From a virus: DNA of 52,509 bases. Shown here piece after piece: positions 10,558 through 44,171 of the stretch. Below the pieces are notes generated by a model. The model worked only from the letters and a program-made list of their open reading frames with translations. It ran no database searches and had not been told where the DNA came from. The stretch lies in IMG/VR virus record IMGVR_UViG_3300020131_000001, positions 1 through 52,509 of that record. One strand, given 5' to 3'. Within the stretch, counting starts at the first letter, position 1. Each line of letters begins with the position of its first letter. A program made the translations under genes and the position numbers.

Positions 10558-11757
10558 TTACATTACCCGTTCGGCCTCTTCGTGTGTCAGCGTTGCGTCA
10601 GACGCCTTAAAAAGCAGGCTCTCAAAGCTGTCCGAGAGGCTTTCTTTCATCTGAGGCAGCACCTTCGTGTAGACCTTCTTTGTAAAGTTCACGTCCGAGT
10701 GTCCCATCTGAGCAGAGACGGCCTTGTCCAGTTCCCCGGCCAGTAGAGACAGCGTGGCGAAGCTGTAGCGCATGGTATAAGGGGTAAACTCCGGCGGCAG
10801 CCCCGCCTTCTTGACGAGCTTGAGAAAGCCGCTCCTGAGCCGTCCCGTGGTGTTCAGGGGCCGTCCGTCCGACGAAGGGAATACAAGGCCGAAATCCTGC
10901 CACCTGTTTCCCATCAACTTCCGGCGCTCGTCCACCTTCTGAAAGTGCCGAAGGAGGTCATAATAGATATGCGCCGGAAATCTAGCGTCCCGCTTGCTGT
11001 TCTCAGTCTTAGGGTCGAGCAGCTTCCACTTGCCTTCAACGAGTAGAGCTACTTTCCTGATGCGGGCTATCCCCCTGCCGTTCTCGAAAGATATATCCTC
11101 TCGTCTGAGTCCTGATAATTCTTCGGGCCGCAGGCCAGTGACAAGCCCGAAGATGTAAATCAAATCTTCAGGGTCTTGAGTAGCGGCCTGTAAAAACTGA
11201 ATAGCTTGAGGCACGTTGAAAGCCTTGCCCTCGCGCGGAGGGTTCAACGATTTCAGGTGTTTGATGCCTGTGGCCGGATTCTCCTTGATGTACTTGAGAG
11301 TGACGGCATCCTTCATGCCCATGTGCCACACGGCCCTTGCCAGTTTCATCGTTGCTGTAGACTTCCCCCTGTCCCACAGCCACGCCGCAAAATCACGGGT
11401 ATGCTTCGGGGTCAAATCCGAGAGCTTAAACGCTCCGAGATACGGCGCTATGTACAGGTCAATCATATCCTGATAGGTGCCGTAGGTTGTCGGCCTCACC
11501 CCTTCCCGTCTTTTCTGCGGCAGCCATTCCTTCTCGAAATAGTCCTTGACGAGCATCTGCGAGGCTTCAAAGAACGTCCCGCCGTCAACTTCCGCTAGCA
11601 GAGCGATGCACCGTTTCTCGGCTTTCAGTGGTGTAGTGTCAAAGAGCGTTTCGTTGTGGTAGTGCTTCTTACCTTGTCCGTCCCGGCCGGTGAAGATTCG
11701 GATGCGGAACTTCCCGCCGCCGAGGTCTTTCACCTGGCCCCTGCGTCTCTTAGGCAT
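10558..11757 (-). CDS. int: Tyrosine site-specific integrase.
   Basis: N-terminal SAM-like core-binding region plus a catalytic domain (TGLRPEEL, MRYSFATL, GHSDVNFTKKVYTKV). Start trimmed to ATG 11757, which has a GGAGGAGAG RBS. Confidence 0.85.
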   Translation of the reverse strand: MPKRRRGQVKDLGGGKFRIRIFTGRDGQGKKHYHNETLFDTTPLKAEKRCIALLAEVDGGTFFEASQMLVKDYFEKEWLPQKRREGVRPTTYGTYQDMIDLYIAPYLGAFKLSDLTPKHTRDFAAWLWDRGKSTATMKLARAVWHMGMKDAVTLKYIKENPATGIKHLKSLNPPREGKAFNVPQAIQFLQAATQDPEDLIYIFGLVTGLRPEELSGLRREDISFENGRGIARIRKVALLVEGKWKLLDPKTENSKRDARFPAHIYYDLLRHFQKVDERRKLMGNRWQDFGLVFPSSDGRPLNTTGRLRSGFLKLVKKAGLPPEFTPYTMRYSFATLSLLAGELDKAVSAQMGHSDVNFTKKVYTKVLPQMKESLSDSFESLLFKASDATLTHEEAERVM

Positions 11758-11797
11758 AGCCTCTCCTCCTTTATTGGATTTAAGGCTGGACAATTTA

Positions 11798-12061
11798 TCA
11801 CGCCGCATTTTCTAATTCACCCTTTTTATAGGCATCTATATCCCTGCGCCGGATTCTTAAAGTTTTGGAGCTGGGGCGATAAGAGGGTAGTTTGCCCTCC
11901 CTACACATCTCGTAGACGCGCCACTTCTTGACGCCTAAGAGTTTAGCCGCTTCATCAGCGCTGACACCTTCGTCCGAGAGGTCAAGCATCTCACGGACTT
12001 TCTGCTCAACCATCGGCTCGACAATTCGTTTTAACTGTTCGTCTGGTATGACTAATTCCAT
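11798..12061 (-). CDS. xis: Excisionase-family helix-turn-helix DNA-binding protein.
   Basis: VSADEAAKLLGVKKWRVYEMCREGKLPSYR...RIRRRDIDAY is typical of MerR-like excisionase HTH proteins. It lies directly upstream of int. Confidence 0.7.
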   Translation of the reverse strand: MELVIPDEQLKRIVEPMVEQKVREMLDLSDEGVSADEAAKLLGVKKWRVYEMCREGKLPSYRPSSKTLRIRRRDIDAYKKGELENAA

Positions 12062-12668: not shown

Positions 12669-13313
12669 TTATGCTGCTTTTTCAAAACAAGCCTGCATAA
12701 TCTGACTGCCTAAAAACTCAGTAAAAGCGGGTGGTATCGCTTCCTTCAATTCGTCGGCAATCATCCAATCAATCCCATAAGCTAAGGGGGCGTTCTTTAC
12801 TGACTTATAGTTACCCTTCTCGCGTATCGCTCTGCTGTTAGCCCCAGCGGTCGTAACCAACAAGGGCTTGAAGTCGTGCCTACATGGGGGAGTCAGCAAA
12901 GAGATAAATGGATAGACCTCGAAATAACGATGCCTAAAAGTTTGCAATCCAAACATTGAGCCGCAGAGTTTTATGGGATTGATAAGATGGCGCCGATTGT
13001 TCTCGACGTTCTCAATAATGTAAGGCTTGCCGGCGGCCTGTAATCTTTCGCGTATGGCCGGGATTAAGTTCTGATGATTGGCCCTATGCGACTTAGGCGT
13101 AACAATACTCCCGAACTGACAGGGCGGTGATGTGAAATACAAATCATACCCGTCTATGTCTGCGGTGAGGGCGTCGCCTAAGATGAATGGATAGGGATAC
13201 CGAGGCTGCGGGCGAATATCCAAGCCTGTGACATCAAACCCGGCCAAAGCAAGGCCACGACTGGCGCCGCCAGCGCAGCAACAAATATCCAGAGCTTTCG
13301 GCTTATTGTCCAT
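12669..13313 (-). CDS. DNA (cytosine-5) methyltransferase, compact.
   Basis: Motif I DICCCAGGASRG, motif IV SPPCQ, motif VI IIENVEN, motif VIII QTFRHRYF, motif X-like AIPPAF. The start may instead be the upstream ATG at 13388. Confidence 0.8.
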   Translation of the reverse strand: MDNKPKALDICCCAGGASRGLALAGFDVTGLDIRPQPRYPYPFILGDALTADIDGYDLYFTSPPCQFGSIVTPKSHRANHQNLIPAIRERLQAAGKPYIIENVENNRRHLINPIKLCGSMFGLQTFRHRYFEVYPFISLLTPPCRHDFKPLLVTTAGANSRAIREKGNYKSVKNAPLAYGIDWMIADELKEAIPPAFTEFLGSQIMQACFEKAA

Positions 13314-13432
13314 AATCTTCCGCCCGGTGATTACCCGCTGCTGTGGGGAATTAAGATTTAGAGCTAGACGCCTGCCCGTGGTTATCATGGTCGCAGCTGC
13401 TCGCTAATCGCTTGGCATCCTGAGAGCCTGCG

Positions 13433-19443: not shown

Positions 19444-19884
19444 TTACTGTTCCCGTCCATCCGAGCATTTGACACGGAAGGTGCAAAGTGCCTGTTCCGA
19501 TGTGTAAGTGAAACTGTCGCCGGGTTGCATGGATTGAGCGAACTTGTAGATATCCCCAAGCTGTTCACCAGCGATGCGCTCAAGGTCTCTCAGAAGGTAG
19601 TAGTCTTCGCTGTTGCCTTCGGGGTCGTCGGCCTGGGTGACTTTGAATTGCCAGATGCGGCTATCTTTTGAGGCGTCTTCGCAAGCGGGCTTATCGCAGG
19701 TGAAAGGCCCGTCATAGTTAGCATCCGTGATTGCAGCGCAGGCTTCGTTGTAGCAATCAAACCAGTCGCCGCAAATAGCGCATCTGTGGTTGGCCTCATG
19801 CGCGCGGGGCATCAAAGGGTTATCAAGTTCAGTAAACTCGTACTCACTAATTGTCTCTTCCATTCTATCTAACGTGTCGTACAT
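19444..19884 (-). CDS. First gene of the leftward early operon; Cys-rich hypothetical protein.
   Basis: AGGAGG RBS; lies 54 nt downstream of the -10 of the promoter at 19938-19966. Confidence 0.6.
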   Translation of the reverse strand: MYDTLDRMEETISEYEFTELDNPLMPRAHEANHRCAICGDWFDCYNEACAAITDANYDGPFTCDKPACEDASKDSRIWQFKVTQADDPEGNSEDYYLLRDLERIAGEQLGDIYKFAQSMQPGDSFTYTSEQALCTFRVKCSDGREQ

Positions 19885-19937
19885 GATGTCCTCCTGTTGT
19901 GTGCTGTTCCTCTCACTCGTTCCTAGCTGGTATATAC

Positions 19938-19966
19938 ATAATATATACTTAACATATACCTGTCAA
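19938..19966 (-). promoter_or_regulatory. Leftward early promoter (PL-like), sigma70 type.
   Basis: The minus strand reads TTGACA, a 17-nt spacer, then TATTAT. It is overlapped by (T/C)ATATAC repeats at 19931, 19942 and 19953 (11-bp phasing) and by the inverted repeat GGTATAT/ATATACC. Confidence 0.6.
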
Positions 19967-20014
19967 TAGGGTAGGCAAAGATTTTTGAGAAATATTTTCA
20001 GGCAAGAAAAAAGG

Positions 20015-20046
20015 CGCTTCCGAAGAAGACGCCTCTTTCCTGTCGG
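20015..20046 (-). terminator. Rho-independent terminator ending the repressor/PAS operon.
   Basis: The minus strand reads GGCGTCTTC-TTCG-GAAGCGCC followed by TTTTTT, 16 nt after the PAS gene stop. Confidence 0.75.
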
Positions 20047-20061
20047 GATTGTCGGGTTTTA

Positions 20062-20703
20062 TTAGATGATTTGAGTTAATCCAACCCAGTTCGTAATATT
20101 GCCTGAACTGTCCAGAATTGGAATTGCGAGATTCAGAAGCCGGACGTATGCGCCAGAAGCATTTAGTACTCGGTTTGTGTGATTAAATGTCTGTTTAGCT
20201 GCCTGGGCATCTATCCATTTTCTTGCGTTTATTTCTCGGTCGTCCGGATGTACTAGAGAAAGGAAGTCGTTAACTGCTTCTGGAGGATGACCAGTGAGCC
20301 TTGACCACTCCTCGCACGGCTTAATTATGCTATTGTGGTCAGCGACCCAATTCCATCTATTCGGCATAGATGATTTGTCCAGATTCATAACTCTTCCTTG
20401 AATCGCAACGACTTCGCCTTCTATTTCATATTCAAACTTCGTTAGCCTTACTTCTCGATTATCACTACCGCAAATTGTTATGGTTCCGTGCCTATCTATG
20501 CTTATCAAGAGACTACAAAACGAGTAACCGCGCGCACGCAACCATATGAGCTGCTTAGGGGCCACCGGCCCTAATCTGACAATGCAGCAATCGCCTTCCT
20601 GTATACCTTGCTCCAGCCAGCCCTCAATAACTTTGTGGGAGGCAAGAGTAGGTTGTTTTTTGGCGGGGTACATGCCTCGGGGCTGAAGTACATGTACTGA
20701 CAT
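20062..20703 (-). CDS. PAS-domain protein with an unknown beta-rich N-terminal domain.
   Basis: C-terminal NRWNWVADHNSII.PCEEWSRLTG......FLSLVHPDDRE......NRVLNASGAYVRLLN...ILDSSGNITNWVG has the PAS-fold signature. Confidence 0.65.
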   Translation of the reverse strand: MSVHVLQPRGMYPAKKQPTLASHKVIEGWLEQGIQEGDCCIVRLGPVAPKQLIWLRARGYSFCSLLISIDRHGTITICGSDNREVRLTKFEYEIEGEVVAIQGRVMNLDKSSMPNRWNWVADHNSIIKPCEEWSRLTGHPPEAVNDFLSLVHPDDREINARKWIDAQAAKQTFNHTNRVLNASGAYVRLLNLAIPILDSSGNITNWVGLTQII

Positions 20704-20889
20704 ATTAGTGATGCTGAATACAATTTCAGCTACTCCTTTCTGAAGAATTTCGGGAGTTAGGAAATAGGGAGACCGTCCTCTTAGACACCACTATACACGC
20801 GAAGGATTACCCGAAGTCTTGAAAATTATCTGAGAAAATAGATGAAGTTTTTATGAAAGGAATTGTTAGAGGAAATAGCAAAATTTTAG

Positions 20890-21195
20890 CTAGGTATCAT
20901 TACCGTTTTTCTCAGTACCAGTTGGAGGGAGTTTTGTTAGACCAATCTCACGCTCTACCGTATCCTTTACGCCCGCCATAGCATCCAGTTCCACGCTGTC
21001 AATTCTGTAATAAGCTACAAGAATCGCCTCAATTTGTTTATTCACACTTCGACGGCACCGCTCGGCATCCTTAGCTATAACGTCGTGGAGGCGAGGGGGT
21101 ATCTCAAGAAGTTTTTGCTTGACCTGCTTCTTCTTCGAGGATTTCTTCTGCGCCATGTTCCCGTTTATATCATATCGTTTCGATATATCCAACAT
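20890..21195 (-). CDS. Ribbon-helix-helix (Arc/CopG-like) repressor; candidate maintenance (CI-like) repressor.
   Basis: LLEIPPRLHDVIAKDAERCRRSVNKQIEAILVAYY has the RHH pattern. AGGAGG RBS 8 nt upstream. Divergent from the rightward operon. Confidence 0.6.
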   Translation of the reverse strand: MLDISKRYDINGNMAQKKSSKKKQVKQKLLEIPPRLHDVIAKDAERCRRSVNKQIEAILVAYYRIDSVELDAMAGVKDTVEREIGLTKLPPTGTEKNGNDT

Positions 21196-21264
21196 ATCTA
21201 GCGCCTCCTAAATCCTAGAAAATAAACGGTATATACTTTCCATATGAAAAGTATGCGAATTTCC

Positions 21265-21296
21265 TTGACGCCAAACCTATACTTGGTATATATAAA
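21265..21296 (+). promoter_or_regulatory. Candidate rightward early promoter (PR-like).
   Basis: TTGACG, then 17-18 nt, then ATATAT/TATATA. The -10 is embedded in a GGTATATAT copy of the operator motif. Confidence 0.45.
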
Positions 21297-21318
21297 GTAT
21301 ATGAAAGGACAGAAACAT

Positions 21319-21489
21319 ATGGTTGAAGAGAAAGAGACAAAAACATTTCTTGCTACTGTCAGCGCAGAGGCCGAAGAGAAGCTGAGGGAAGAAGCTAAGG
21401 CCATGATGCGCAGTCGTAACGCCCAGCTCGCTTACATCCTTGAAGAGAGATATGGCCTTCTCTCGGAACAGCAACCGCAGGCAGCTTAA
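21319..21489 (+). CDS. Ribbon-helix-helix protein; candidate Cro-like regulator.
   Basis: Start trimmed to ATG 21319. KTFLATVSAEAEEKLREEAKAMMRSRNAQLAYILEERY has the RHH pattern. It is the first gene of the rightward operon. Confidence 0.55.
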   Translation: MVEEKETKTFLATVSAEAEEKLREEAKAMMRSRNAQLAYILEERYGLLSEQQPQAA

Positions 21490-21500
21490 TAGAGGTCAAT

Positions 21501-22262
21501 ATGCGCGTTGAAACCATAACCATAGAAGACATCCGTGGAATCCCTTTTATACTTGCTGATATGAAAACAGACAATATCAGCCGCAGAAATTTAACCACCT
21601 ACGAAAAGTCAAAGACTATCGTTGAACTGGCCGATGCCGTTGGGGGGCAGCTAGCAAGGGGAGCCGCCGCTCAAGTTGAGCCGTTGGCCGACTCTAGCTC
21701 TGCATACTTCGGAATCCTGAAAGGGTCTAAGACGCGCCGCTTTGCTAAAGCCTACCCCTCTGCCTGGACTGGACATTGGCATTTGGCGGCGATAATTGAA
21801 GCAGAAGTAACATATACAAATCACCCGGAACCTCAAGAGAACGTCGCATTTTGGTTTGATGCTCAGGGCTTTGATTTAGCGGACTTCACTTGGGGCTCGT
21901 CCCCCTCAGAGCCTTTGGAGCATAACCCTTTTTATAAGCTCGAACCTCCGAAGCTTCGTCTGGTACAACCGGAACCGGAATCAAAAACTTCATACGTGTA
22001 CTTCATTCAGGCCGAAACAACCGGACTGATTAAGATTGGCGTTACTAACAAGCCCGCAACTCGCCTTAAGGCCCTCCAGACGGGCTCCCCTATGCTTCTA
22101 CGACCACTAGGGCTAATTGAAGGCGACACAAGATTGGAAGCTGCATTACACGCTCAATTTAAGCATTTAAGGCGTCATGGCGAATGGTTTGAGCCCAGCG
22201 CCGAATTACTAGCATTTATCAAAGAACGGGCTAAAGCGTGGCCCTCTAAGACAAACAAATGA
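21501..22262 (+). CDS. T5orf172 (GIY-YIG-related) domain protein.
   Basis: C-terminal YVYFIQAETTGLIKIGVTNKPATRLKALQTGSP...HGEWF. Confidence 0.6.
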   Translation: MRVETITIEDIRGIPFILADMKTDNISRRNLTTYEKSKTIVELADAVGGQLARGAAAQVEPLADSSSAYFGILKGSKTRRFAKAYPSAWTGHWHLAAIIEAEVTYTNHPEPQENVAFWFDAQGFDLADFTWGSSPSEPLEHNPFYKLEPPKLRLVQPEPESKTSYVYFIQAETTGLIKIGVTNKPATRLKALQTGSPMLLRPLGLIEGDTRLEAALHAQFKHLRRHGEWFEPSAELLAFIKERAKAWPSKTNK

Positions 22263-25851: not shown

Positions 25852-26127
25852 ATGAGCGCACGGTTTGATAAAGATGTGAAGTCAATAGAACGCTATGCGG
25901 AACAGCTCAGGCCGCCAGAACAGAATTTAAGGCTTGCTTACTTTGATTTGTCTCAGACCTATGAGGCGCAGGGCAAGCAGCTAGACGACCTTCGCAGGCG
26001 GTTCATAGAAGACACTGGCGCAGATTGTATTGCGTGCAGTCTTCCTATCTTGAGAGAGGCTTTTATGAGTAAGAAGGATTCCAGTCGCGGGCCTCTTTGC
26101 AGGGCTTGTTTTGTGGAGAAGAAATGA
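25852..26127 (+). CDS. Hypothetical protein.
   Basis: GGGAAG RBS; CIAC...CRAC pairs. Confidence 0.5.
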   Translation: MSARFDKDVKSIERYAEQLRPPEQNLRLAYFDLSQTYEAQGKQLDDLRRRFIEDTGADCIACSLPILREAFMSKKDSSRGPLCRACFVEKK

Positions 26128-27203
26128 CACAAGAAACCGGACTAATAAGGTGGGATGATAACGGCCTTCCCATATTTTTAGGTGACTCGTGGGAGGCGCA
26201 CATATCTTCGTGGCTAGAAGTTTCTTTGCAAGCAAAGCAAGACAGAGTGCTGCTTGCCTCTATAGCTTACAGCCTAGCGAGTAAATGGGCGCGCCGAAAG
26301 ACGGGAAAAACCGTAGAGCAATTTGCTGGTGATGTTGGTTTAAGAGCGCGAACAATATATGACTACATACAGGTCTACGAAATGTTGCAAAAGTGCGACC
26401 AGTCGCAAATTCGCAATCTTTTAGAAAGCCCGCTCTCTTTCAAGCATTTAATCTTGGCCTCCGACATTAAAGATGAAGCAGAGCGCGAGGCAGCACTAGC
26501 AGAGGCAGAGGATGAAAACCTTAGTGCGGAGTCAATGCGAGACCGCCAGAAAAAGAAAAGGCGAAAAGCACGTATTGATGAAGGCTTAAAGTCTATCGCT
26601 AGTACGGCTTTATCTGACCGCTACAAGCTAATCAAGTGTGACATACGAGAGGCGCATAAAAAGATAGCGGCACAAAGTATTGACGTGATTATCACTGACC
26701 CACCTTACCCTCAAGAATACATCCCTCTATATGAAGACCTTGCCAAATTAGCAGCACACGCGCTGAAACCAGGCGCATCTATGCTTGCGATGGTAGGCCA
26801 GTCCTACCTACCTGAAATCCTATCTCTAATGACACCGCACATGCGCTACCACTGGGCCGTTGCTTATTTAACTCCAGGCGCGCACACGCAACTTTGGCAA
26901 CGTGAGGTAATGACCGGCTGGAAGCCCGTTCTTTGGTTTACGAACGGCGATTATCAAGGTGAGTGGAAATACGATGTGGCTAAATCGGAGAAGCCAGATA
27001 AAGAACACCACGAATGGGGGCAGAGTGAGTCCGGTATGGCTGACCTTATCGAGAGATTCAGTTATCCAGGCGATACAATCTTAGACCCGTTTCTAGGCGG
27101 TGGAACTACAGGCGTGGTAGCGCTCCGAATGAATCGCTGTTTTATTGGAATTGATGACGACCCAGAGGCCATTGACACTACAACGAAAAGGATTGCGGCT
27201 TAA
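26124..27203 (+). CDS. DNA N6/N4 methyltransferase with an N-terminal HTH-like extension.
   Basis: IITDPPYPQEY catalytic motif and LDPFLGGGTTGVVA AdoMet motif. ATGA overlap with the upstream gene. Confidence 0.75.
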   Translation: MTQETGLIRWDDNGLPIFLGDSWEAHISSWLEVSLQAKQDRVLLASIAYSLASKWARRKTGKTVEQFAGDVGLRARTIYDYIQVYEMLQKCDQSQIRNLLESPLSFKHLILASDIKDEAEREAALAEAEDENLSAESMRDRQKKKRRKARIDEGLKSIASTALSDRYKLIKCDIREAHKKIAAQSIDVIITDPPYPQEYIPLYEDLAKLAAHALKPGASMLAMVGQSYLPEILSLMTPHMRYHWAVAYLTPGAHTQLWQREVMTGWKPVLWFTNGDYQGEWKYDVAKSEKPDKEHHEWGQSESGMADLIERFSYPGDTILDPFLGGGTTGVVALRMNRCFIGIDDDPEAIDTTTKRIAA

Positions 27204-27661
27204 TGCAAGAAGAGAAATACGGCCACAGAGACCTTATCTACTCCGCTTGGCACAGGCGCGGCTCGACCCGCCGATTTATCGGTCTTGAAAAGGCACAGCT
27301 ATTGGCAATGGTGGATTTAGATGTAAGCCTCTGGCTTGAATATGACGACGGGACGAAGGATACGCTGGCACTTGTCGAAACAGCTCAAGATGTGGGGCAG
27401 AGCATAAAGCCTGCTACCGTCCTACTGAAACTTGCTAAGCGTATTCACCCTGTAGTGCCTGCCTATATTTGCCTTTACACACCTTCGGTGGCGCTTAATC
27501 CAGCCGACTCGCGGTGGCCTGACATTGAGAAGTTTAGATGTAAGAGACTCTGGCCTTTTCCTGAAAACGTTTACACGGAGTACAGCCCAAGGGAATGGGC
27601 AGAGAAGCTTTTGAAGATGCGTGAATGGTCAGCAAGTCAATTAGATAAAGAGGTCGCATGA
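27203..27661 (+). CDS. Hypothetical protein.
   Basis: TAATG overlap upstream and ATGA overlap downstream, indicating translational coupling within the replication module. Confidence 0.55.
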   Translation: MQEEKYGHRDLIYSAWHRRGSTRRFIGLEKAQLLAMVDLDVSLWLEYDDGTKDTLALVETAQDVGQSIKPATVLLKLAKRIHPVVPAYICLYTPSVALNPADSRWPDIEKFRCKRLWPFPENVYTEYSPREWAEKLLKMREWSASQLDKEVA

Positions 27662-28383
27662 GCGTTCACGTAATGTCAAAGGTCTGGAAGTGCGCGCCGT
27701 ATGAAGGCGGCACCTTACTTGTCCTCTTAGCTTTAGCAGACTGGGCAGATGATGACGGCCTATGCTGGCCGTCCGTTCCCGTATTAGCTAAGAAAGCTCG
27801 GTTAAAGGACAGGCAGACCCGCTACGCTTTAAGACAACTGGAAGAGGACGGTTTCATATCCACGGACGAACAGCGCGGACGGAATCACACAAACCGCTAC
27901 AAGATAAACCTGCACAAATTGCAGGTTATAGAAGCGGAAAACCTGCACTCCACGACGCTAAAACCTGCACTCAGCGGCACCGAAAACCTGCACTCCAGTG
28001 CAGCCGAACCATCAATAGATACACCAAGAGATACACAGCAACCTAAAAAACAGGTTGCTGGTCGCACAACGATAAAGAACGACCCTACGATGATTCACGG
28101 CGCAGTGATTATCTATCGCGATACTTTCCAGAAAACACCGACACCAGAACAACGCCGCTTGATTACCGAACGTGTGGATGATTTCAAGGTGTGGTATCAG
28201 GTGTGTGAACAGTTCATGAGTGAGGGCCGCCCGCCGCAGCGCGTTGATTGGCTGCTTGAACGCTACGTAAAGGCCAGAGGCCAGCCCGCGATTGAGACGA
28301 AGGAAGCGAAGCAAGAGAGGTTAAGACGCCAGTACGAAGAGAGGGCTAAAAATGGACGAGATACCGCACGACCTACAAGCTGA
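27658..28383 (+). CDS. Replication initiator-like winged-HTH protein (lambda O analogue).
   Basis: The N-terminus LLVLLALADWADDDGLCWPSVPVLAKKARLKDRQTRYALRQLEEDGFI is typical of phage replication HTH proteins. It carries the iterons and precedes dnaB. Confidence 0.6.
   Translation: MSVHVMSKVWKCAPYEGGTLLVLLALADWADDDGLCWPSVPVLAKKARLKDRQTRYALRQLEEDGFISTDEQRGRNHTNRYKINLHKLQVIEAENLHSTTLKPALSGTENLHSSAAEPSIDTPRDTQQPKKQVAGRTTIKNDPTMIHGAVIIYRDTFQKTPTPEQRRLITERVDDFKVWYQVCEQFMSEGRPPQRVDWLLERYVKARGQPAIETKEAKQERLRRQYEERAKNGRDTARPTS
27906..28003. repeat. Iteron cluster (candidate origin of replication) inside the initiator gene.
   Basis: AAACCTGCAC occurs at 27906, 27939, 27961 and 27984. There are inverted copies at TGCAGGTT 27920-27927 and CTGCACTCCAGTGCAG 27988-28003. 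Confidence 0.6.
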
Positions 28384-29692
28384 GAGGGCAATCCTGGGTT
28401 CAATACTCATGGATAACGGCAAGTTTCTGGAAGCTAAGTCTAAACTGAAAGCAGACTCTTTCTACGGCCCGTTACACCGTAGGGTTTGGGCCGCGGCGTC
28501 CTCTCTTCACGAAGAAGGAAGGGAAGCAGACCCTATCACTCTATGCGAGAGAATGAAGGAACAGAACGCTTTACGAAACGGCGAACAGCAGGAAATCTTC
28601 TCTCTCATCACGGGTATTCCCTACAAGGTTTCCATAACGCCCTACATCGAAATTGTGAGGCGTAAGGCACAGCGCAGGTGGTTAATTCGCTTCGGCGGTG
28701 AAATAGAAAAGCGAGTTATGGAAGGCGACGAGTCCGAAGCCGAGCTGATTCAGTGGATAGACTCTCGCCTTGAACTTGTACGACCGCGAATAGAAGAACA
28801 GAAGCGCGGGCCTGCGGAAGTAAGCGAGCGCTTAGAAACTCAGACTCTAAGGTTCGAGAAATTCTATCGCGGCGTCTCTGACTGTGTTGGTACTGGGTTT
28901 CGTGAGATAGATTCAAAACTCACGGGCGCGGGCTTCGGCAGAAAGCACCTGGTCATACTTGCAGCTAGACCGTCCATCGGAAAGACGGCTTTAGCTTTGG
29001 ACTTCGCCGCCAACTGCGCCTCTCGCGGCGAACGTGCGCTTGTCTTCTCTCTCGAAATGTCAGCCGAAATGCTGATTGACCGTCTCGTAGCTGTCGAGGC
29101 GGGCGTGCCACGCTGGAAGATTCAAGCGGGGATAAGGCAGTTTGAATACGAACGCATATCGGAAGCCCTGCCTTCGGTCTGTGACAAGGGAATCATCATT
29201 GACGACTCATCTTATTCACTCGCGGAAATCAGAAGGCACACGAGAGAAATCATGCGGTCGCAGCGGCCCGTGGATTTAATCATAGTTGACTATCTTCAGC
29301 TAATTGATGTCGAGCGAAAGCACGGAAGTCGTAATGATGACGTTGGCGAAGTGTCTCGCGCGCTAAAACTCATGGCTATGGAATGGAACGTCCCTATTAT
29401 CGCGCTGTCTCAGCTCTCTCGAAACTGCGAGTCACAGAATAGAGAGCCCGAACTGAGGGATTTGAGAGACAGCGGCGAAATTGAACAAAACGCGGACACC
29501 GTGTTTTTCCTCTTTGGTGATAAACCAGAGGAACAGGTTTCTTTTCGAGACATAACAATTAAGTGCGCGAAGCAGAGAGAAGGAATGTTGTTCAGAACCC
29601 AGGTTCCATTCAACTGTGAGCTAGTTACATTCCGCGCACTGTCTCACATTGTCAGACCCGTTGAAGACGTTCCTTTTGAGGTAAGCCATTAG
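28352..29692 (+). CDS. dnaB: Replicative DNA helicase, DnaB family.
   Basis: N-terminal AERAILGSILMDN, Walker A ARPSIGKTALAL, Walker B LIIVDYLQL, and the SQLSR motif. Confidence 0.9.
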   Translation: MDEIPHDLQAERAILGSILMDNGKFLEAKSKLKADSFYGPLHRRVWAAASSLHEEGREADPITLCERMKEQNALRNGEQQEIFSLITGIPYKVSITPYIEIVRRKAQRRWLIRFGGEIEKRVMEGDESEAELIQWIDSRLELVRPRIEEQKRGPAEVSERLETQTLRFEKFYRGVSDCVGTGFREIDSKLTGAGFGRKHLVILAARPSIGKTALALDFAANCASRGERALVFSLEMSAEMLIDRLVAVEAGVPRWKIQAGIRQFEYERISEALPSVCDKGIIIDDSSYSLAEIRRHTREIMRSQRPVDLIIVDYLQLIDVERKHGSRNDDVGEVSRALKLMAMEWNVPIIALSQLSRNCESQNREPELRDLRDSGEIEQNADTVFFLFGDKPEEQVSFRDITIKCAKQREGMLFRTQVPFNCELVTFRALSHIVRPVEDVPFEVSH

Positions 29693-36337: not shown

Positions 36338-36901
36338 ATGAGCAAGGAACTGACAACCAAGCAAAAGCTATTCATAGAATCTTATCTATCGAACGGTTTT
36401 AATGCTACCGAAGCAGCTAGGAGGGCGGGCTATAAAGGCAACGAGCATACGTTGTCCAGTGTCGGATATGAAAACCTGAGAAAACCTGAGATTGCTGCCG
36501 TAGTTTCGGAGCGGATAAATGAAGCCGCTATGTCGGCAAATGAGGTAATGGCAAGACTTTCAGCCATTGCGCGCGGCAAGGTAACGGACTTTGAGGACGA
36601 AAGCGGCAACTTCGACTTGAATAAGGCAAAGAGAGCCGGAAAGGATGGACTCTTAAAGAAGCTCAAGCGTAAACGCACACTCAAGCGTGTTGATGTTCGT
36701 TCGGAGGGGGAAGATGAGGCAGAGACTTTGGAAACGTCGCTCATCTTTGAAGAGGTTGAGTTTGAGATGTACTCAGCTCATGAGGCTCTAAGGGATTTAG
36801 GGAAGTTTCATAAGCTCTTTGTAGACAAGCACGAGCATAGCGGGCCGGATGGCTCTGCTATACCGATTTCAATTATTGAGGCCGTAAAGCCTGATGCCTG
36901 A
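36338..36901 (+). CDS. terS: Terminase small subunit (Terminase_2-like).
   Basis: KQKLFIESYLSNGFNATEAARRAGYKGN. Start trimmed from 36272 to ATG 36338. Confidence 0.8.
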   Translation: MSKELTTKQKLFIESYLSNGFNATEAARRAGYKGNEHTLSSVGYENLRKPEIAAVVSERINEAAMSANEVMARLSAIARGKVTDFEDESGNFDLNKAKRAGKDGLLKKLKRKRTLKRVDVRSEGEDEAETLETSLIFEEVEFEMYSAHEALRDLGKFHKLFVDKHEHSGPDGSAIPISIIEAVKPDA

Positions 36902-38192
36902 GTTGATGGAGGTCACAGAAGACGGGCGCTTACGGCTGCACTTCCATTCTGGACAGTGGACGGCATGGGAGTCTCGCAGGCGCTTTGTAGTTGTTCTCGC
37001 TGGCACACAAGGGGGGAAGACATCTTTCGGGCCGCATTGGTTATATAGGGAGATTAAAGAAAAAGGGCCGGGTGATTACATGGTCGTGACTCCTACCTTC
37101 CAACTGCTAGAACTCAAAGCCTTGCCGGAACTCCGCAAGTTGTTTGAAACCATCCTGCGATTAGGGCGCTATGTTGCTTCACCCGTTCGGAAGTTTGTTT
37201 TCTCTGAAGAGGGGGAGATTAAGACCTTCGGACAGAAACAGAGCGTCCCTACTACCGTTTACTTTGGTTACGCGGCTGACCCTGAAAGCCTGGAGTCAGC
37301 TACGGTCAAGGCCGCCTGGTTAGATGAGGCGGGGCAGAAGAAATTCAAGCTGGGGTCATGGGAGGCTGTTCTAAGACGCCTTTCTCTCGCCATTGGGAGA
37401 GTTCTGATAACGACTACGCCCTATGACCTGGGATGGCTGAAACAGAAGCTATGGGATAAGTGGAAGGCTGGGGAAAAAGATGTTGAGATTACCAGATTTG
37501 ACAGCACAGAAAACCCAAGCTTTCCCGTGGAAGAGTTTGAAAGAGCTAGACGCGACCTTCCCGGATGGAAGTTCGATTTATTCTACAGGGCGATATTCAC
37601 AAGGCCAGCAGGGTTAATCTACGACAGCTTTAATGAGGATTTATGCAAGGTTCCGCGCTTTTCAATCCCTGATAAATGGCAGCGTTATTTAGGGCTGGAT
37701 TTCGGCGGCGTCAATACCGCCGGGCTGTTCTATGCAGAGGAGCCGGAGACGGAAAGGCTTTATCTTTACCGTGAATATAAAGCAGGTGGAAGGACGGCCA
37801 AAGAACACGCCGAAGCCTTGTGTAATGGAGAGCCTATGCTGCCTGTTTGCGTTGGCGGTTCTCATTCAGAGGGCCAGTGGCGGCAAGAGTTCAAAGCAGG
37901 TGGTTTACCCGTTCGTGAGCCCGACATTAAAGACGTGGAGATAGGTATAGATAGGGTTTACGGGGCGCACAAGCGAAACGAGATATATGTCTTTGATGGC
38001 CTCTTTGGCTATCTGGAAGAAAAGCAAACATATGCGCGCGAGTTGGATGCTAATGGGGAGCCAACGGAAAAGATAGAAGACAAAAGTACATTTCATTTTA
38101 TGGACGCCGAAAGGTACATCATAGGTTGGCTGAAGAGGAATAAACAAGACTTTGAACTTCCCAAATCCAAGAGTCAGGGGCAACTAGGATGA
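36894..38192 (+). CDS. terL: Terminase large subunit.
   Basis: Walker A LAGTQGGKTS, Walker B AAWLDEAG, and a C-terminal nuclease-sized domain. Overlaps terS by 8 nt. Confidence 0.85.
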   Translation: MPELMEVTEDGRLRLHFHSGQWTAWESRRRFVVVLAGTQGGKTSFGPHWLYREIKEKGPGDYMVVTPTFQLLELKALPELRKLFETILRLGRYVASPVRKFVFSEEGEIKTFGQKQSVPTTVYFGYAADPESLESATVKAAWLDEAGQKKFKLGSWEAVLRRLSLAIGRVLITTTPYDLGWLKQKLWDKWKAGEKDVEITRFDSTENPSFPVEEFERARRDLPGWKFDLFYRAIFTRPAGLIYDSFNEDLCKVPRFSIPDKWQRYLGLDFGGVNTAGLFYAEEPETERLYLYREYKAGGRTAKEHAEALCNGEPMLPVCVGGSHSEGQWRQEFKAGGLPVREPDIKDVEIGIDRVYGAHKRNEIYVFDGLFGYLEEKQTYARELDANGEPTEKIEDKSTFHFMDAERYIIGWLKRNKQDFELPKSKSQGQLG

Positions 38193-43112: not shown

Positions 43113-44171
43113 ATGGCTACTAGCTGGATTCCCGAAGTTGAGGAGCTTTCGCCTGCGGCTTTGACTGTCCGTGCTCAGACGATTGACCCCAACGACCCCG
43201 CAAACATGCTTCTCTGGCCCGCATTCGCACCCAGACGAGATGTTGACTCCGTTGACCTGAGTGACGTGACTACCCTGGACGACCGCCCCACGGCAGACCG
43301 TAGGGAGTGGAACCAGAGAGGCCGTCATGTTCCGCCTCGCATCCCCGCGCGTCGTGAGGTCTCGATAGTTCCTATTGAGGCTTACGACAAGATAGGGGAA
43401 AAGGAAATGCAGAGATTGGCTGAAGGCTCTAATGGCAACGAAGCCATTATGCAGCAGCTCATAGGCGTTCGCATCCCTGATCGGGCTATGAGATTGGTGA
43501 TGGCTGATTACCGAAGGCTTGAGTTCGACTTTTTCAACGCCTGGTTGAACGGCCAGATTGTCCAGCGCAATCCGCAGAATGCAGCCGAGACACAGACTGC
43601 CTCTTTCGGGTTTGACTCCGCTCGACTTACCACTGCTGGAACCGCATGGGACGACCCCGGCGAGGACGCCTATGCCAATCTCATAGGGTTTCTTGAGGAT
43701 GCCATATCGGCAGTCGGAAACATTCAGGGTGTGGCGACAAGGAACTCCGTTATCGCCGCTATTCAGGCTGACGCCCCTGACCTTATCGGCGGCGTAGCCA
43801 TGACCCGCGCTCAATTAGAGCAGCGAATCTCTGACGATGTGGGCCAGCCGTTCCGGTTCTACATGGTCGAGAATACCGTGGACGTTTTCACAGATGGCGG
43901 CACGGCTACCACTTCCACGAAGGTTTTCACTGCCGGACACCTCGCTGTGGTTCCCGCGGGTGGACAAGTGGGTTACACGGCCTTCGCTCCGGTTGTCCGC
44001 GCGATGGAATTAGCACGGCAGGTTCCCGGTGCCGGGATAGACATTCGCGGCGTCACGGTTTACTACGACGAAGAGTTGATGGGGAGAGGGCTGACCATAG
44101 AGGCACAGCTTAACGCCCTTCCTGTTCCTGACGAGCAGCGTGTTTTTGTCGTGGATACTCTCATAGCCTAA
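43113..44171 (+). CDS. Major capsid protein (gpE-like).
   Basis: AAGGAG RBS; 352 aa. Position and length match the lambda E family, and the C-terminal ...LNALPVPDEQRVFVVD resembles the E-family end. Confidence 0.7.
   Translation: MATSWIPEVEELSPAALTVRAQTIDPNDPANMLLWPAFAPRRDVDSVDLSDVTTLDDRPTADRREWNQRGRHVPPRIPARREVSIVPIEAYDKIGEKEMQRLAEGSNGNEAIMQQLIGVRIPDRAMRLVMADYRRLEFDFFNAWLNGQIVQRNPQNAAETQTASFGFDSARLTTAGTAWDDPGEDAYANLIGFLEDAISAVGNIQGVATRNSVIAAIQADAPDLIGGVAMTRAQLEQRISDDVGQPFRFYMVENTVDVFTDGGTATTSTKVFTAGHLAVVPAGGQVGYTAFAPVVRAMELARQVPGAGIDIRGVTVYYDEELMGRGLTIEAQLNALPVPDEQRVFVVDTLIA

Follow-up and report, generated by a model that had tools for sequence, protein, structure and literature searches.

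We describe here a two-domain protein of 213 amino acids (aa) encoded in the immunity region of a temperate phage, whose genome is given by IMG/VR record IMGVR_UViG_3300020131_000001 (52,509 nucleotides (nt); this whole stretch of DNA is hereafter called the window). At the level of predicted fold and profile comparison, the N-terminal half of the protein belongs with the S24 barrels of LexA, UmuD and lambda CI but is shorter and catalytically dead, whereas the C-terminal half is a PAS domain. The gene (20062–20703 on the minus strand, with an ATG start and the stop codon at 20062–20064, as in the list of open reading frames (ORFs)) is part of the immunity cassette of the phage and is insulated from PL by a terminator. 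The protein thus presents known folds in a new architecture, that of an immunity-region accessory gene, and we tentatively propose that it acts in trans, through protein contacts, on the lysis–lysogeny switch.

The cassette is laid out like that of lambda. Reading leftward on the minus strand, a gene for an Arc/ribbon-helix-helix (RHH)-type repressor candidate of 101 aa (20890–21195; phrog_582 Arc-like repressor, E 2.5e-5, with a weak ParD_like match in Pfam and no S24 domain) is followed by a spacer or leader of exactly 186 nt (20704–20889, 36% GC), the 213-aa gene and an intrinsic terminator that closes the cassette (20005–20041). Next comes a PL-like sigma-70 promoter for the leftward early operon (19938–19966, minus strand; TTGACA-17-TATTAT, 11/12 matches). 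The terminator, a hairpin with a one-base bulge followed by a T-run, has a free energy of folding of −20.9 kcal/mol, and none of 200 shuffles was equally stable (z −3.6); a near-identical terminator with the same upstream AATCCCGACAG stands 3′ of the homologous gene in two related loci, L007 and L002. The motif ATATAC-N5-ATAT occurs 13 times in the window against 2.1 copies expected, and 10 of the 13 fall into two clusters: an OL-like operator cluster with 11-bp phasing over the PL-like promoter (19927–19968, with the motif copies at 19932–19957), and an OR-like cluster (21183–21302) between the repressor gene and a divergent RHH-like gene in the Cro position. The latter encodes a small protein of 56 aa (21319–21489, plus strand) and was called as a gene on a Logan contig; a longer ORF gives a weak ParD_like match. 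Because the two clusters flank it, the cassette of the RHH gene and the 213-aa gene is bracketed by OL- and OR-like operator sets, and because the 213-aa gene shares the orientation of the repressor gene and is followed by the terminator, it could not be transcribed from PL or PR in this layout. A first-pass annotation, made from the letters of this DNA alone, had named the repressor candidate, the spacer, the strong terminator and the promoter, and had placed the 213-aa gene in the position of lambda rexAB. All of these elements were recovered, and the promoter, terminator and operator clusters fit the lambda-like topology upon comparison with the annotation of the lambda record. The ORF, in which every peptide string quoted in that annotation is present, is supported as coding by its PAS_3 match and by 15 true homologues of its N-terminal domain, and an identical copy of the protein occurs on 3 Logan contigs.

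The C-terminal half (aa 115–213; 20065–20361, minus strand) is a PAS domain of the PAS_3 type, in agreement with the PAS signature first read from its sequence. PF08447 (PAS_3) matches aa 131–209 with an E value of 1.8e-10 (41.4 bits against a cut-off of 25.6), and the AlphaFold2 (AF2) model shows five strands and helices in this half, with a predicted local distance difference test score (pLDDT) of about 90. Foldseek against the PDB returned PAS structures only, namely, 3h9w (TMt 0.74, root-mean-square deviation (rmsd) 2.7), 3f1p (TMt 0.72) and 3eeh (TMt 0.71), and a single-sequence search of PDB sequences gave a weak PAS match to 3eeh alone. No LOV motif of the GxNCRFLQ type was seen by eye, and no LOV, heme or other cofactor signature turned up, no dedicated search having been made. 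Neither the Pfam scan nor the AF2 model revealed a helix-turn-helix (HTH) or other DNA-binding domain in the 213-aa protein. A flexible linker (aa 104–114; 20362–20394, minus strand), with pLDDT below 50 at residues 106–112, separates the PAS domain from the N-terminal half.

The N-terminal half starts with an arm that is predicted to be disordered (aa 1–17; 20653–20703, minus strand; pLDDT below 50 at residues 1–13) and continues as an all-beta barrel (aa 18–103; 20395–20652, minus strand), for which the AF2 model shows seven strands over aa about 18–103 with pLDDT values of 90 to 98. The model was built on a 15-sequence alignment and has a mean pLDDT of 86.7; single-sequence AF2 reached only 35. 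Foldseek against BFVD returned PAS proteins together with many entries named "Repressor protein CI," "LexA-like," "SipA" and "COG2932," the CI, LexA-like and SipA matches covering 85 to 98 columns with rmsd values of 2.3 to 3.3 Å, a probability of 1.0 and E values of 2e-4 to 1e-2, in an output that gives no query ranges and so does not state which part of the protein was aligned to the CI proteins. We assign these matches to the N-terminal domain because the only all-beta module of the targets is S24 and because an independent register from hhalign agrees. In that comparison, a 19-sequence alignment of the N-terminal domain was set against a 10-sequence S24 alignment (E. coli LexA and UmuD, lambda CI and seven diverse phage repressors from GenBank phages); the score was 28.8 over 69 columns (P 1.6e-4), against a maximum of 17.0 and a mean of 10.9 for 200 column shuffles and 13.6 for the reversed alignment. 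An earlier hhalign comparison with a three-sequence S24 profile was weak (P about 1e-3), and one with the single UmuD-like protein encoded next to a family member (described below) was not significant. The register pairs GD-LL-V of S24 with GD-CC-IV of the N-terminal domain, GQ-VVVA with KQ-LIWL, TV-K-RL with FC-S-LL, VELLP with ITICG, and FTIEG-AVGV with YEIEG-VVAI.

The same register shows what has been lost. The column of LexA K156 is occupied by Ser64 in the window protein and by Ser, Asn, Ala, Gln, Gly or Cys in its relatives, and the loop that carries LexA S119 (G-x-S-M) is a gap in the profile alignment, beside an invariant Trp and a nearly invariant Pro of the family. No conserved Lys, His, Asp or Cys was found in the alignment of the N-terminal domain. 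Because both residues of the catalytic dyad, Ser and Lys, are missing, the S24-like domain cannot be a protease. The arm has no A-G; its motif in the relatives is V-[LY]-x-[FY]-[PK], and their V-L-A-F-P resembles, by eye only, the V-Q-C-G-F-P of UmuD without the Gly. The vague likeness to an S24/LexA-type barrel suggested in the first-pass annotation therefore holds for fold and profile, but the barrel is truncated and, with the Ser–Lys dyad gone, the possibility of an active protease falls away. The divergence is considerable: PF00717 matched 0 of 15 members even at E values up to 10, the Pfam and PHROGs scan of every member at the same threshold gave no S24 or repressor family, NCBIfam models of S24, LexA and UmuD gave no match for the three proteins scanned (the window protein, P0012 and P0015), and a family-profile search of PDB sequences gave none. 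The domain is thus too divergent for the sequence models of Pfam, NCBIfam, PHROGs or the PDB.

The family is small. A HMMER search with aa 1–115 against 1.84 billion representatives (E ≤ 1e-3) returned 18 proteins, the query and 17 others. P0003 and P0013, giant SprB and beta-propeller repeat proteins, were spurious matches of the domain search, so that the family comprises about 16 clusters in that collection, with 15 true relatives of 84 to 362 aa. P0004, P0005 and P0017 share the architecture of the N-terminal domain plus PAS; PAS_3 matches two of these three relatives above threshold and P0004 below it. Most other relatives consist of the N-terminal domain alone, and P0014, P0015 and P0018 carry a different C-terminal tail. 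The PAS-less P0009, P0012 and P0016 occupy the same genomic slot, and relatives in the same position without PAS indicate that the dead barrel, not PAS, is the conserved core. In the four proteins that carry both domains, the N-terminal and PAS identities move together (46/47, 40/35, 36/36 and so on), which indicates one stable fusion. In P0002 (L007, 752–1129), GEIPRWAGSTQPI comes directly after the barrel and corresponds to the last PAS strand in the window protein, GNITNWVGLTQII; nearly all of PAS has apparently been deleted in frame. P0006 (L024, 975–2063), of 362 aa, contains three tandem copies of the dead barrel and is preceded by a protein of 207 aa. Family ORFs have stayed intact at 25 to 52% identity, with invariant Trp, Gly and Ile positions.

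A word-indexed protein search with the 213-aa protein found only the protein itself, and the same kind of search with the family profile found five proteins, namely, the query, three known members and one new one (P0019). Pattern scans of GTDB representatives, IMG/VR and JGI metagenome contigs found no relatives, and a DNA search of GenBank phages gave no match to the window phage. The family is absent from Pfam, PHROGs, NCBIfam, PADLOC and GenBank phages, PAS being the sole Pfam, PHROG or PADLOC match of the 213-aa protein. Because it is missing from the four family collections, the N-terminal domain merits a family definition of its own. One relative consisting of the N-terminal domain only comes from a metagenome-assembled genome (MAG) of Pyrinomonadaceae (Acidobacteriota), and the non-phage members P0010 and P0015 lie in elements bearing ParA, Mob or primase genes, after an HTH_17 gene.

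The position of the gene is conserved as well. In all nine phage-like loci, the family gene lies directly 3′ of the CI-position gene, on the same strand and after a gap of 124 to 188 nt. The CI-position gene could be assigned in 8 of the 9 as an RHH or HTH_3 repressor, without an S24 match in any, and it is one of a divergent pair in every locus except L002/L003, which is too short. An RHH gene occupies both the Cro and the CI position in the window, in L007 (62.9 kb, with P0002) and in L025 (77 kb, with P0009); in L002/L003 (P0004), the CI-position gene is RHH and the Cro-position gene was not recovered. The RHH genes upstream of the family homologues in L002 and L025 are related to the 101-aa gene of the window. 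HTH_3 genes fill both positions in L004 (P0005) and L034 (51.7 kb, P0020), and the CI position alone in L005 (61.9 kb, P0017), L023 (56.6 kb, P0012) and L026 (P0016), where the Cro-position gene has no Pfam match. A tenth locus, L024, has the three-copy P0006 after the same-strand 207-aa gene, which is of unassigned type. In L034, a TTGACT-17-TACAAT promoter lies within 50 nt 3′ of the family gene, amid repeats that match, in inverted orientation, those found between the cro and cI of this phage. The L034 gene thus lies between inverted operator copies, and OL–OR bracketing is seen again in a lineage whose repressor and operators are unrelated to those of the window.

Further observations concern the genes next to the family. 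At their C-termini, the window RHH repressor (20890–20940, minus strand; LTKLPPTGTEKNGNDT) and that of L025 (4800–4850; LTKLPNGGEDKSGTNDA) have nearly the same tail, whereas their DNA-binding parts differ, and the HTH_3 repressors of L004 and L026 have acidic tails rich in Gly, Asn and Asp (…DGTNDE and …GENGDDATGTGE). These tails could be a docking peptide, a degron or merely low-complexity sequence. In L008 and L009, which are plasmid- or integrative-and-conjugative-element-like (ParA, Mob_Pre and a DUF927 primase), the end of a gene for a UmuD-like protein overlaps the start of the family gene P0015 (L008, 7510–8004 and 8001–8573, both on the plus strand; L009, both within 1295–2358). This UmuD-like protein of 164 aa matches PRK10276 of NCBIfam (E 5.4e-6) and, as judged by eye, has TGKPR where UmuD has SGDSM, so that the Ser is lost; two degenerate S24 proteins are therefore in tandem, and no umuC-like gene was called beside them.

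The first-pass annotation had also taken the 213-aa gene to be co-transcribed with the repressor gene. The 186-nt spacer contains no terminator, so that read-through from the repressor promoter is possible; however, the spacer carries conserved promoter-like blocks, and we therefore treat co-transcription as unproven. Spacers were compared in an alignment and in the sequences of six loci; outside the window, the spacer lies at 369–492 in L002, 565–775 in L007, 4819–5000 in L023, 4851–5000 in L025, 2630–2796 in L026, 1003–1179 in L004 and 5860–6000 in L005. The spacers are AT-rich and share blocks among phages whose family proteins are only 33 to 48% identical. In the window, the blocks kept in divergent relatives are a −10-like TATAGT (20790–20795), CTCCCGA (20750–20756) and a Shine–Dalgarno (SD)-like GGAG (20733–20736). 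The TATAGT block is followed by GG(C/T)GTCT in the window, L002 and L007 and by TGGCATC in L023, L025 and L026; CTCCCGA(C), whose CTCC(C) can pair with the SD-like GGAG further downstream, and AGGAGT-GC are further blocks common to the relatives. A sigma-54 reading of the conserved TGGCRTC block was dropped by eye, since the spacing is wrong. The GGAG lies 29 to 31 nt 5′ of the ATG in the window (29 nt), L002 and L007, and the annotated ATG of the 213-aa gene has no SD sequence at the usual distance. Between GGAG and ATG is a small hairpin (20713–20730 in the window) whose stem differs by locus (GCUGAA/UUCAGC versus GGUGCC/GGCAUC). The leader as a whole folds no more stably than its shuffles (z 0.29), it has no Rfam match, and in an alifold analysis of three sequences the covariation was too thin for a claim of structure. 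The 213-aa gene may thus have its own promoter at the TATAGT block, and, as read from these sequences, an internal promoter with a structured leader, perhaps one that controls translation, is as possible as read-through from the repressor promoter. In lambda, a second promoter serves rexB.

In a different frame, a 50-aa ORF (20571–20723, minus strand) runs across the start of the 213-aa gene. It begins with a TTG at 20723, nine nt after a strong SD-like AAAGGAG; its sequence is not protein-like and the relatives have no counterpart, and it is probably no gene. A TCCCGAC-like motif occurs on both sides of the 213-aa gene, as the CTCCCGA of the leader and as CCCGACAATCCCGACAG before the terminator (20041–20053, minus strand). 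The copy before the terminator is kept in L007 (about 1140–1150) and L002 (about 1152–1162), and AATCCCGCC is found in L034 (10702–10710). These short direct motifs on either side of the gene could serve for binding or processing, or could mark the edges of a cassette.

As for function, the simplest reading, which we favour at a confidence somewhat short of even, is that the protein would be a trans-acting, protein-interaction accessory of the lysis–lysogeny switch in which PAS serves as an input or a dimeriser. The protein would be made in the lysogen and act via protein–protein contacts, replacing in trans the C-terminal domain that is built into classical CI/LexA repressors. Apart from catalysis, that domain dimerises or oligomerises in those repressors and docks on activated RecA filaments. 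The stand-in would supply one or both of these functions and so set, with no proteolysis, how stable repression is or how readily induction occurs; in the four lineages that have it, PAS would add a small-molecule or redox input, or mere dimerisation. The available text of PMC9926225 describes the S24 domains of LexA, UmuD and lambda CI as docking in the same groove of the RecA filament. Several points weigh against this proposal. The DNA-binding folds of the partner repressors are unrelated to one another, a point against any specific contact with the repressor body; as targets it would leave their tails or host factors such as activated RecA. The diversity of the repressors, together with the alike tails of the window and L025 RHH proteins, likewise points to repressor tails or to a host partner. 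The gene bears hallmarks of a moron, with a possible promoter and a terminator of its own and with GC and GC3 (GC at third codon positions) below the phage average. A Cheo-type LexA box (GAAC-N4-GTTC), a consensus that may not be that of the host, is not enriched in the window and is absent from the immunity region (0 copies). The missing query ranges of the Foldseek output belong here too. A stronger version strikes us as unlikely. In it, some temperate phages have divided the CI repressor between two genes, one for an RHH or HTH protein that binds DNA and the other for the dead S24 barrel, which acts in trans. The barrel would then provide oligomerisation, RecA-filament docking or both, and induction would be non-proteolytic, coming by titration or allosteric release of the barrel instead of cleavage of the repressor; where PAS is fused to the barrel, the switch would in addition respond to a small molecule, to redox state or to light.

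Genes adjacent to phage repressors often serve exclusion or defence, as do lambda rex, 933W stk, the sie genes of dairy phages and mycobacteriophage defences. As the main rival reading, it is conceivable, if somewhat doubtful, that the 213-aa gene is a rex-like moron for lysogenic conversion, exclusion or abortive infection, expressed from the prophage to shield the lysogen and without a role in its own switch. PAS would then be the sensor, and the dead barrel would act as a decoy for some component of an incoming phage, or trap it. The position shared with lambda rexAB, the conserved promoter-like block and own terminator on its flanks, and the composition of the gene (GC 0.46 and GC3 0.435, versus 0.494 for the phage) all favour such a moron. 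However, the protein matches no PADLOC defence model, and beyond its two folds, which are of interaction or sensor type, it has neither a membrane segment nor an effector domain such as a nuclease, a kinase or a pore. Morons are usually gained and lost, whereas this position is kept in 9 of 9 phage loci at 33 to 46% protein identity and with two unrelated repressor classes; an exclusion role would also leave the pairing with S24-less repressors unexplained. A modulator of the host DNA-damage response, that is, a mimic of the UmuD/LexA C-terminal domain that binds RecA filaments, LexA, Pol V components or the clamp, would suit the S24 ancestry, the overlapping tandem with a UmuD-like protein in L008/L009 and partner repressors too diverse for a shared direct contact. 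It would also suit the single RecA-filament groove shared by LexA, UmuD and lambda CI in the available text of PMC9926225. In the lysogen, such a mimic would dampen the SOS response or divert it, for instance by blocking the induction of rival prophages, and would affect its own repressor only indirectly. We regard it as quite unlikely, since the barrel lacks the Ser-bearing strands and its cleavage-site region is at best vestigial, so that the RecA-docking surface may not survive, and since strict adjacency to a phage repressor would not be needed. The loss of the catalytic residues, the truncation of the barrel and the loss of most of PAS in P0002 could be taken as signs of decay, the protein then being a non-functional C-terminal domain of a former CI-type repressor, accidentally fused to a captured PAS. 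This is extremely improbable in view of the intact ORFs with their invariant residues, the confident predicted fold, the conserved leader and terminator and the three tandem domain copies of P0006.

The window is nearly the whole of a 52.5-kb contig and carries the genes expected of a temperate phage genome, with a tyrosine integrase (10558–11808, minus strand), an O-like initiator and a DnaB-type helicase (27658–29692, plus strand), a large terminase (36894–38192, plus strand), a portal gene and a major head protein (43113–44171). The large terminase has relatives of 68 to 70% identity in four Herpetosiphon genomes and in MAGs of Anaerolineales and Caldilineales (L013–L022), and the host is therefore probably a Chloroflexota bacterium. 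Directly after the Cro-position gene, where lambdoid phages have cII or an antirepressor, stands a gene (21501–22262, plus strand) whose 253-aa product carries at its C-terminus a T5orf172/MUG113 domain, which is related to GIY-YIG (Pfam E 1e-10; phrog_8130, E 1.6e-23; a weak match to PADLOC PDC-S57, E 1.2e-3). The first gene of the PL-like operon (19444–19884, minus strand), in the position of lambda N, encodes a Cys-rich protein of 146 aa (HRCAICGDWFDCYNEACAA…CDKPACED) without a family match. Each arm has one DNA methyltransferase gene (12669–13388, minus strand, and 26097–27203, plus strand; phrog_363, E 6e-28, and phrog_67, E 2e-33), and no tRNA genes were found in the window.

Prophage induction is known chiefly by two routes, RecA-stimulated self-cleavage of S24 repressors and antirepressors, and phage-encoded sensors of other signals, such as VqmA_Phage and arbitrium, are rare. 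If barrel and repressor cooperate, the family would show that the function of the CI C-terminal domain is separable from DNA binding and from proteolysis, and would offer a handle on signal-dependent lysogeny in the barely studied mobile elements of Chloroflexota and Acidobacteriota. A repressor truly split between two genes would be a new class of prophage switch; if the gene serves exclusion instead, it would represent a defence architecture of a new kind, in which a repressor domain is used as a decoy. In the literature, we found no account of dead S24 barrels that stand alone in the immunity regions of phages, whether fused to PAS or not, and none of sample SRR7003810.

Among known systems, the closest in fold is the S24 C-terminal domain of LexA, lambda CI and UmuD (PF00717), which has the same beta-barrel fold and strand order. 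The motif register agrees (GD…V, a G-Q-hydrophobic strand, an x-R-L strand and a final I-E-G-x-V strand), as do the phage immunity context and, in one element, the UmuD-like neighbour. By contrast, the barrel of the family has about 85 aa against about 125 aa for the S24 domain, the Ser loop is absent, the Lys is replaced by Ser, Asn or Ala, no Ala-Gly is seen in the N-terminal arm, and Pfam gives no match. Unlike in CI and LexA, the barrel is encoded separately from the DNA-binding domain and is fused to PAS in four lineages. With these defining catalytic features failing in its sequences, we do not consider the family a member of peptidase S24 in the functional sense. The slot is that of lambda rexA/rexB, as well as of 933W stk and sie genes, namely, 3′ of the repressor gene, on the same strand, in the OL–OR interval and with a terminator before PL; the family has, however, no kinship to rexA/rexB in sequence or fold and no membrane partner.

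Two further systems resemble the cassette in logic. In ImmR/ImmA of ICEBs1, phi105 and many phages of Gram-positive bacteria, the gene of an S24-less repressor likewise has a distinct accessory gene after it, in the same operon; the likeness is only one of logic and gene order. ImmA is a Zn-metalloprotease of COG2856 that cleaves ImmR and so mediates derepression, whereas the 213-aa protein has no COG2856 match in Pfam, no HExxH and no protease residues, so that any action of it would be non-proteolytic. VqmA_Phage of vibriophage VP882 is likewise a phage PAS protein placed to influence the lysis–lysogeny decision: it is a quorum-sensing receptor with PAS and HTH domains and the ligand DPO, and it triggers induction via the antirepressor Qtip (PMC8284805). 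VqmA_Phage is, however, a DNA-binding transcription factor, whereas the 213-aa protein has its PAS domain joined to a dead S24-like barrel and has no DNA-binding domain.

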